A DNA stretch of 64,000 nt from Asaia bogorensis (GTDB lineage Bacteria > Cyanobacteriota > Cyanobacteriia > PCC-6307 > Cyanobiaceae), in NCBI GenBank assembly GCA_943370455.1, contig CALRQW020000001.1, positions 377,506-441,505 of the forward strand, given 5' to 3'. The notes under the pieces were generated by a model. It was given only the letters and a program-made list of their open reading frames with translations, did no database searches and was not told the DNA's origin. The translations under genes were made by a program, and so were the position numbers. The first letter of the stretch is position 1. Every line of letters starts with the position of its first letter. Below are positions 55,801-56,856 of this stretch, piece after piece.

Positions 55801-56856
55801 ATGACAAGCCTTTCTTCTGCGGCCAGGCGTCATCCCTGGCGGCAATTCAGTGCATGGATCACCAACACCAACAACCGCATCTACATCGGATGGTTCGGTG
55901 TGCTGATGATTCCTTGCCTGCTCACGGCAACAATCGTGTTCGCCTTGGCCTTCATTGGCGCACCCCCCGTGGATGTTGATGGCATCCGCGAACCGGTGAG
56001 CGGTTCGCTGCTGGGGGGCAACAACCTGATCAGCGCAGCCGTGGTGCCGAGTTCCAACGCCATCGGGCTCCACTTCTATCCCCTCTGGGAAGCCTCCAGC
56101 GTGGAGGAGTGGCTCTACAACGGCGGGCCTTATCAGCTGATCGTGTTCCACTTCCTGATCGGAATCACGGCCTGGATGGGCCGCCAATGGGAACTCAGCT
56201 ACCGGCTGGGGATGCGGCCTTGGATTGCTGTGGCCTACTCCGCCCCCTGGGCCGGTGCGATGGCCGTGTTGCTGGTGTATCCGCTTGGGCAAGGAGCCTT
56301 TGCCGACGGCATGCCCCTCGGCATCTCCGGCACCTTCAACTTCATGTTGGTGCTGCAGGCTGAACACAACGTGCTGATGCACCCGCTGCACATGCTCGCG
56401 GTGGCCGGCAGCTTCGGCGGCGCCTTTCTGGCGGCCCTGCATGGCTCGCTGGTGAGCAGCAGCCTGATTCGTGAAACCACCGAGCAGGAATCAATCAACC
56501 GGGGTTATCTGTTTGGCCAGGAAGAGCCCACCTACAACATCGTGGCGGCCCACGCCTTCATGGGGCGCTTGATCATGCCCTACGCCACCAGCGACAACAG
56601 CCGCAGTGTGCATGCCCTGCTGGCCGCCTGGCCGGTGATCGGCATCTGGTGTTCCGCCTTGGCGGTGGTGAGTTTCGCCTTCAATCTCAACGGCTTCAAC
56701 TTCAACCACGCCGTGCTCGATCACCAGGGCCGCGTGATCCCCACCTGGGCCGATGTGCTCAACCGCGGCAACCTCGGCATCGAAGCCATGCACGAGCGCA
56801 ACGCCCACCAATTCCCGCTCGATCTGGCGGCGAGGCCAGCTCCAGCGCAAGGCTGA
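55801..56856 (+). CDS. psbA: Photosystem II D1 protein, highly divergent, D1-prime (microaerobic)-like
   Basis: [58 protein letters not shown]; 351 aa from ATG 55801. Confidence 0.97.

Follow-up and report, generated by a model that had tools for sequence, protein, structure and literature searches.

A psbA paralogue of freshwater and brackish Cyanobiaceae encodes a D1 variant with a complete set of water-oxidation ligands and a rebuilt QB pocket

Can a D1 protein keep every residue of the water-splitting side while the pocket of its exchangeable plastoquinone, QB, is rebuilt? This question is raised by a psbA paralogue in a 64,000-nucleotide stretch of contig CALRQW020000001.1 (assembly GCA_943370455.1, filed under Asaia bogorensis with a GTDB lineage in the Cyanobiaceae), hereafter the window. 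The ATG taken as the start of this gene (Table 1) aligns with the N-terminus of related variants and of standard D1, and an alternative upstream TTG at 55723 would give 26 extra residues without alignment. The encoded protein matched solved PDB D1 chains at E = 1e-181 with zero indels across residues 3–345, its five helices being colinear with the solved structures. It scored 622 bits against the curated cutoff of 596 for NCBIfam TIGR01151 (psbA), which places it within PsbA/D1 (TIGR01151, PF00124). The GC content of the gene, 65%, is the same as that of its surroundings, and no second Photo_RC gene was found within the 64-kb window. The window DNA is 97% identical to a contig (L013) of the metagenome-assembled genome (MAG) 'Vulcanococcus sp. 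Con.Enr.2019-1'.

Residues were checked codon by codon against the full sequences, taken from PDB alignments, of Synechocystis PsbA2 and of T. vulcanus PsbA2 (Group 3, G3) and PsbA3 (Group 4, G4); we use standard D1 numbering, in which residue n of the variant is residue n+1. The variant retains D61, E65, Y161, D170, E189, H190, H198, H215, Y246, H252 and H272 as well as the C-terminal ligands H332, E333, H337, D342 and A344. The ligand set of a standard water-oxidising D1 (D170, E189, H332, E333, H337, D342, A344, Y161 and H190) is complete, and it is invariant in the core of the family described below. Residues serving P680, YZ, the Mn4CaO5 cluster, CtpA processing and the non-haem iron (H215, H272) are likewise kept, together with the bicarbonate partner Y246. 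On the acceptor side we found F211L, S212A, M214L, E244P, G253A, Y254F, F255M, F260M, Q261P, S264T, F265S, N266D, L271V, F273A and F274L. A sequence-only reading of this stretch had listed the Mn-cluster ligands, YZ/H190, H198, H215, H252 and H272 as intact and the same 15 substitutions as present, and at codon level both lists proved accurate. S212A is not special, since T. vulcanus PsbA2 has it too. Changes beyond that list are Y126W, V151W, T155M, F186L, F197L, G201A, V205S, L210F, K238L and F285C, and Q130 is also among the changed residues on the pigment and pheophytin side. As the same reading had noted, two of the three markers of D1′ proteins are present: the protein matches the G3 triad A80/L158/A286 at its first two positions and has S at 286. 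In the family A80 does not vary, half of the members have F instead of L at position 158, and S286 is the rule, with A286 in the 99%-identical relative on L013. The extension past A344 has 8 residues (ARPAPAQG), against 16 in ordinary cyanobacterial D1.

The same signature is common to approximately 24 clusters at 90% identity in the protein database, about 400 sequences in total, which are 74–99% identical to the D1 of the window and are annotated, where at all, only as 'photosystem II q(b) protein'. A profile search with the family alignment gave no additional family clusters, and a search of 50%-identity representatives gave mostly D1 fragments, from which only P0125, a ChlF-like protein, served, as outgroup. 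The hosts are freshwater or brackish Cyanobiaceae, including Vulcanococcus MAGs; named ones are Vulcanococcus sp. Clear-D1, the cultured Synechococcus sp. CBW1107, whose complete genome (OY986430.1) carries the gene at 955627–956688, and, more distantly, Synechococcus sp. A10-1-5-1. A degenerate DNA motif that required P261 within a D1 context had 9 matches among 185,579 GTDB species genomes, mostly Vulcanococcus MAGs from lakes and rivers, 20 among 241 million metagenome records, and 0 among IMG/VR viral contigs. With this null result, the conserved chromosomal synteny and the GC content like that of the surroundings, a phage-borne psbA was rejected. Proline 261 is possible without the remaining signature, because an otherwise ordinary G3-type D1 (L036, 8393–9420; PsbA2-like 'LMLGISG') carries Q261P alone. 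A 350-residue protein from a 2.3-kb ENA contig (P0025) has an N-terminal half like picocyanobacterial G4 (G80, Y126, L151) and a C-terminal half of the variant type (P244, P261, S265, D266), and is either an assembly chimera or a product of recombination between psbA paralogues. The evidence set for the family comprised 25 full-length sequences and 16 metagenome loci.

How unusual these replacements are became evident from ordinary D1 proteins. Among 113 full-length D1s compared, F211, M214, E244, G253, F255, Q261, S264, F265, N266 and L271 are present in all ordinary proteins of G3, G4 and D1INT, and nearly all QB-pocket residues are at least 99% invariant in 82 cyanobacterial and plant D1s. 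The core of the variant family has instead L211, L214, P244 (S in one member), A253, M or L255, M260, P261, T264 (rarely S), S265, D266 and V or I271, and it also carries W126, W151, M155, A201, S205, C285 and S286. With 82 ordinary G3, G4 and D1INT sequences as baseline, 221 positions were at least 95% conserved; 17 of them are replaced in the variant family (changed in at least 90% of 19 core members), and 13 of these 17 fall in residues 195–290 (Fisher p = 1.7e-4). Eight of the 14 residues of the QB niche are changed, while H215, L218, V219, A251 and H252 are untouched and a hydroxyl is kept at position 264. Within the family F210 occurs with A273, and L210 with L or V273 and W274, a co-variation that fits a packed, functional pocket.

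The sequence-only reading had placed the altered residues at the QB and herbicide site, and published energetics agree, since the changes strike the main contacts of the QB head and tail (PMC4030317). In the fragment molecular orbital (FMO) analysis summarised by Lambreva 2014 (PMC4030317), F255 and F265 give most of the binding energy of the QB head group, F211 contacts the tail, and G253, N266 and L271 make repulsive contacts; hydrogen bonds come from H215, the S264 hydroxyl and the backbone NH of residue 265, and the first proton arrives via H252. All six of those contact residues are replaced in the variant, and the hydrogen-bonding and proton-delivering group is kept, with a threonine hydroxyl at 264 and a backbone amide at 265. 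In other words, the polar chemistry of the site (H215, H252 and the 264 hydroxyl) stays and its hydrophobic and aromatic wall (F211L, M214L, G253A, F255M/L, F260M, Q261P, F265S, L271V/I, F273 and F274) is replaced. N266D introduces a carboxylate adjacent to the distal oxygen of the quinone, beside T264 and H252. E244, which has been tied to bicarbonate coordination and reported as substituted only in the atypical D1s of Groups 1 and 2 (G1, G2; Cardona 2015, PMC4408414), is gone from the stromal loop over bicarbonate. Residues near PheoD1 and ChlD1 (W126, W151 and M155) have changed too, and their conservation suggests that the whole acceptor branch may have been re-tuned, beyond the herbicide niche.

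In neighbour-joining trees with a ChlF-like root, the 25 variant sequences formed a single clade (78 of 100 bootstraps) on a long stem branch, nested beside picocyanobacterial G3 D1′ proteins, among them the proteins of Cyanobium sp. PCC 7001 and CACIAM 14. Removal of residues 195–290 left this placement unchanged (76 of 100), and the clade accordingly appears to be a fast-evolved offshoot of the D1′/G3 lineage. Phylogeny had been named as a check on the sequence-only reading, and its outcome is this separate long-stemmed clade beside G3. Its sister, P0033 (L017, 8001–9080, on a 317-kb metagenome contig), is an intermediate D1 that has L211, A212, L214, A201 and S205, keeps E244, F255, Q261, S264 and F265, and carries H252Q; its gene adjoins a Crp-type regulator. 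The Lake Mendota MAG JBIPMN01 (Vulcanococcus sp.) holds the variant on contig 19 (L011) and, on contig 89 (L041, JBIPMN010000089.1), a canonical G3 protein with A80, L158, A286, E130 and an ordinary QB site. Since this MAG carries a canonical G3 as well, the variant is not the D1′ of its host. A complete genome with both proteins was sought as well, but P0338, a G3 protein, mapped to genomes other than CBW1107.

The variant gene is under purifying selection: between the window and family members the pairwise dN/dS (ratio of nonsynonymous to synonymous substitution rates) was 0.03–0.15 over the whole gene, at dS up to 0.73, and 0.03–0.18 over the rebuilt region, and dS among core members was 0.5–0.8. 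It is also transcribed in nature. Its 31-mers are present in many freshwater metatranscriptomes, and the variant-specific part (56365–56864, including codons 244–274) was covered by contigs of runs X1–X6 at identities of at least 95–100%, from at least four metatranscriptomes of three studies. The signal is not mere contaminating DNA, since in runs X2, X5, X6 and X3 most of the surrounding 20 kb had no coverage. The D1 that had been read from the sequence is therefore a real one, with an intact, selected and transcribed gene.

We compared the variant with each of the known D1 classes. Its nearest ancestry lies with D1′/G3 proteins (Thermosynechococcus PsbA2, Synechocystis PsbA1, Cyanobium sp. 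PCC 7001 WP_006910002.1), with which it shares the full Mn ligands and, with many G3 sequences, A80, L186, L197, C285 and, in the window, L158. Unlike the variant, G3 keeps F211, M214, E244, G253, F255, F260, Q261, S264, F265, N266, L271 and F273 as invariant residues and has A286; the variant differs further from G3 in its S286, L or F158, rebuilt pocket, short C-terminal extension and locus. The conserved acceptor side of G3 and G4 (E244, S264, F265 and others; Cardona 2015, PMC4408414) is broken in the variant by E244P, S264T, F265S, N266D and F255M. Judged by its residues, the protein fits the definition of a standard D1 on the donor side and departs from it on the acceptor side. It resembles rogue D1 (G2) and ChlF (G1) in that E244 is replaced and 264 changed, and F265 can be S there (PMC4408414), but in those atypical D1s several of the Mn ligands are missing, and they also show an insertion at G253 (G2) or a QD motif with Q252 (G1). 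Rogue D1 was rejected with all ligands present and no insertion at G253, and ChlF/super-rogue D1 with M127-G128 instead of QD, H252 instead of Q and intact ligands (compare P0125); the contrast with both that the sequence-only reading had drawn on the Mn ligands holds (PMC4408414). D1INT is marked by W126 together with W260 (PMC9740203); it occurs mostly in Nostocales, branches with G4 and, as far as Sheridan et al. 2020 is relayed by PMC9740203 and PMC12096807, has a standard QB site except for W260. The variant shares W126, an altered position 260 and acceptor-side substitutions with D1INT, but compared with P0107 and P0110 it has over 10 other altered pocket residues besides M260, and in the trees it groups with G3; with M at position 260 membership was rejected. 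Herbicide-resistant point mutants (S264G/T, F255, N266T, F274V, F211S) are altered at the same positions; these are single recent substitutions in a sole D1, usually with a fitness cost, whereas the variant has a whole co-evolved set fixed in an old extra paralogue. The searchable literature, which did not extend to Sheridan et al. 2020, yielded no account of this clade, so an earlier description is possible.

We therefore propose, at a probability of roughly 0.55, that the gene encodes an extra D1 isoform that came from the picocyanobacterial G3 lineage and was later remodelled on its acceptor side, oxidising water with a re-tuned QB site. The variant would enter PSII (photosystem II) through normal D1 turnover, and centres containing it would still oxidise water. 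The plastoquinone head group would be packed more weakly or differently and the protonation route of QB altered, because of which the affinity for QB and QBH2 and the QA-to-QB equilibrium would change; classical QB-site inhibitors would bind less well. The pocket would still reduce quinone, with the redox gap probably shifted too, and the lowered inhibitor affinity may be either a by-product or the purpose of the remodelling.

Several points weigh against this proposal. PSII incorporation, oxygen evolution and QB kinetics are all inferred from sequence, and P244 and P261, lying in loops that shape the site, could impair rather than tune quinone binding. An AlphaFold2 model on a 16-sequence family alignment reached a mean pLDDT (predicted local distance difference test) of 34.7, unusable for pocket geometry. 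The trees, with 100 bootstraps each, are neighbour-joining rather than maximum likelihood and stand apart from the published D1 reference sets, and coexistence with a canonical G3 is known from one binned MAG. Transcript depth was modest, about 4–35, where the segment in common with standard psbA reached thousands in run X3; contig depth is a poor gauge of expression. Moreover, some relatives have decayed: P0032 has lost Mn ligands (E333V, H337P, A344S), L026 and L029 have an internal deletion fusing approximately residue 24 to approximately residue 223, and in L034 (6865–7920) the W126 codon TGG has become TAG, so the gene is dispensable in some hosts.

These broken copies (the stop in L034, the deletion in L026 and L029, the lost ligands of P0032) raise the thought of a decaying or neutrally drifting psbA without function. 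A dN/dS of 0.03–0.18 at dS up to 0.8, the same replacements fixed clade-wide, an intact frame in more than 30 independent sequences and transcription make this barely credible, and pseudogene status was rejected for the copy in the window on the grounds of purifying selection, clade-wide fixation and transcription. A functional protein might alternatively form centres that do not reduce QB, or that use another acceptor in a protective, regulatory or assembly role as proposed for rogue D1, or that bind a different quinone. The acceptor side is indeed like that of G2 rogue D1 (E244 replaced by A, P, V, K or M, S264 changed, F265 able to be S; PMC4408414), and the variant no longer has the two residues that contribute most to binding of the QB head, nor the stromal surface residue K238. 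Such a role is nevertheless hard to sustain, because H215, H252, the 264 hydroxyl, Y246 and R257 have been strictly preserved by purifying selection; in contrast to rogue D1 the Mn ligands are complete, and no alternative quinone pathway is evident within the window, which together leave it improbable.

The sequence-only label of a low-O2 D1 would make the variant a specialised D1′, induced under microoxic or sulfidic conditions with an over-reduced plastoquinone pool and having a QB site suited to scarce oxidised plastoquinone. Descent from D1′/G3, with A80 and, in the window, L158 kept, speaks for it, and the Hox-type NiFe hydrogenase, Hyp maturases and pyruvate:ferredoxin oxidoreductase (PFOR) encoded in the window imply that the host can meet anoxia. 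But the hox and PFOR genes lie 36–50 kb from the variant psbA, JBIPMN01 encodes, besides the variant, a canonical G3 whose QB site is ordinary, and the transcripts came from ordinary lake metatranscriptomes without any known anoxia. It is the canonical picocyanobacterial G3 genes whose surroundings look like a low-O2 and sulfide neighbourhood: the one at L041 adjoins a Tll0287-like haem protein, a Crp-type regulator, PDO-rhodanese and TauE, others adjoin FeoAB and an SQR-like (Pyr_redox_2) oxidoreductase, and the neighbours at L018 are AcsF-like, HemN-like, PetC-like and ChlR-like genes. None of the low-O2 or sulfide-type genes found there flanks the variant in its conserved locus. The coexisting canonical G3 and the absence of such neighbours leave the low-O2 label unsupported, and we consider it unlikely; since at least one host MAG also encodes a canonical D1′, we think that the role of the variant is distinct from that of a low-O2 D1′. 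We rate about as low the idea of an inhibitor-insensitive spare D1 that is swapped in when natural QB-site toxins (cyanobacterial, macrophyte or fungal allelochemicals) block the standard D1. Four of the eight positions known from field herbicide resistance (F255, S264, N266 and F274) are changed in addition to F211, G253 and L271, the residues performing quinone reduction are kept, the hosts are freshwater or brackish plankton, and low standing expression would suit a stand-by copy. This idea leaves unexplained the conserved W126, W151, M155, S205 and A201 changes at pheophytin and ChlD1 as well as E244P and K238L, and no toxin or resistance genes lie nearby. The clade is also old (core dS 0.5–0.8; a distant member in A10-1-5-1), so synthetic herbicides cannot be the cause.

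Our preferred reading, a water-oxidising isoform with a re-tuned QB site, can be taken further, more tentatively. Next to G3 and G4, the variant would then form a third functional class of water-oxidising D1, its QB site re-engineered and not degraded, with aliphatic residues in place of the aromatic wall and the E244/bicarbonate-side proton route abandoned; this is possible, though we would not rely on it. The D266 carboxylate beside T264 and H252 is reminiscent of Asp-L213 and Ser-L223 of purple-bacterial reaction centres. If the third-class reading is true, PSII with this D1 would bind quinone with another affinity, protonate it by another mechanism and be intrinsically insensitive to QB-site inhibitors.

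Most copies of the variant gene sit in one conserved chromosomal slot, whose order is common to Vulcanococcus MAGs, metagenome contigs and the complete genome of CBW1107: a P-type ATPase, a phosphoribosyltransferase, an open reading frame (ORF) of 69 amino acids (aa), TspO (present or absent) and the variant psbA, followed by a 58-aa ORF, a gene of the fatty-acid-desaturase family, an MBL-fold gene, an FAD protein, an AbrB-like gene and a photolyase. The TspO/MBR gene is intact in the window, L003, L012–L014 and L043; L004, L008, L009 and L030 lack it, and in L016 and L028 only 24 aa of it remain. With this neighbour missing from several loci, its adjacency was given little weight as a functional link. 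Neither the 69-aa nor the 58-aa ORF had a Pfam match. The 58-aa ORF is present in every family locus with downstream sequence (62–100% protein identity), and because a P-type ATPase gene is inserted between psbA and this ORF in L014 and L025, its linkage may lie with the desaturase side rather than with psbA. A consensus scan of 55400–57250 for promoters and terminators found nothing, including no sigma-70 consensus promoter, and the conserved upstream blocks matched no known regulator. Beside canonical G3 psbA genes (L041, L044–L048 and L018), DUF3122 also recurs.

Elsewhere in the window, genes for anaerobic and fermentative metabolism occupy 1675–19560. The GC content falls to 0.52–0.59 at about 18000–28000, against approximately 0.67 elsewhere, and this stretch, which contains a bacteriocin-type exporter, is possibly an acquired island. 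Lower-GC genes of the poly-gamma-glutamate capsule type (PGA_cap, Mur-ligase-like CapB and CapC) lie at 45140–49553 and also at 36868–38199. The capsule block looks inserted in the lineage of the window, because in CBW1107 (L043) a small DUF3175 gene is all that separates the flanking genes, CMAS and P-type ATPase; L004 carries the block too.

Table 1. Coordinates of the variant psbA gene, its residue groups and other features of the window
Feature	Position	Strand	Remarks
psbA paralogue (351-aa D1 variant)	55801..56856	+	ATG 55801, TGA 56854-56856
Pigment/pheophytin-side changes	56173..56262	+	W126 (56173-75), Q130, W151 (56248-50), M155 (56260-62)
Y161 codon	56278-80	+	
Intact donor-side residues	56305..56367	+	D170 (56305-07), E189 (56362-64), H190 (56365-67); family-invariant
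Rebuilt QB/bicarbonate niche, codons for residues 197-286 (helix D, DE loop, helix E)	56386..56655	+	Changed: L197, A201, S205, F210, L211, A212, L214, L238, P244 (56527-29), A253, F254, M255, M260, P261 (56578-80), T264, S265, D266 (56587-95), V271, A273, L274, C285, S286; kept: H215, L218, V219, Y246, A251, H252, H272
C-terminal Mn ligands	56791..56853	+	H332, E333, H337, D342, A344 (56827-29), then ARPAPAQG
Upstream intergenic region	55519..55800	+	Blocks conserved in close relatives, e.g. CTGACACAGCACGCAGC at ~55684-55700
TspO/MBR-family gene (148 aa)	55072..55518	-	Divergent; neighbour in most family loci
Conserved 69-aa ORF (…LFDPF…GRLHAGEELQEPE…CWLDPHY…)	54782-54991	-	Upstream of TspO and psbA, all family loci
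Conserved 58-aa ORF (MAALITLELTAQELHLLRNTIRARRIY...WQPWM...)	56967..57143	+	Downstream of variant psbA
PEP synthase/PPDK-like gene	1675-4059		
Hox-type bidirectional NiFe hydrogenase subunits	4375-8839		
HypF	10320-12698		
PFOR	12750-16445		
HypD	17461-18525		
HypE-like gene	18529-19560		
Bacteriocin-type ABC exporter with C39 peptidase domain	21972-24197		
HlyD-family partner of ABC exporter	24200-25423		
ZIP transporter	26290-27063		

Few protein surfaces in biology are as conserved as the QB pocket of oxygen-evolving D1, which is also the target of a major herbicide class. With more than 10 residues of this pocket changed at once, the water-splitting site kept and the gene under purifying selection, the variant provides a ready-made natural experiment, bearing on which pocket residues are truly required for quinone reduction, on the role of E244 and bicarbonate, and on the tuning of the acceptor-side redox gap. 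Cultured hosts with complete genomes, CBW1107 and, for the distant member, A10-1-5-1, make the variant testable, and the clade would extend the classification of D1 into G0–G4, D1INT and D1FR by one subtype.

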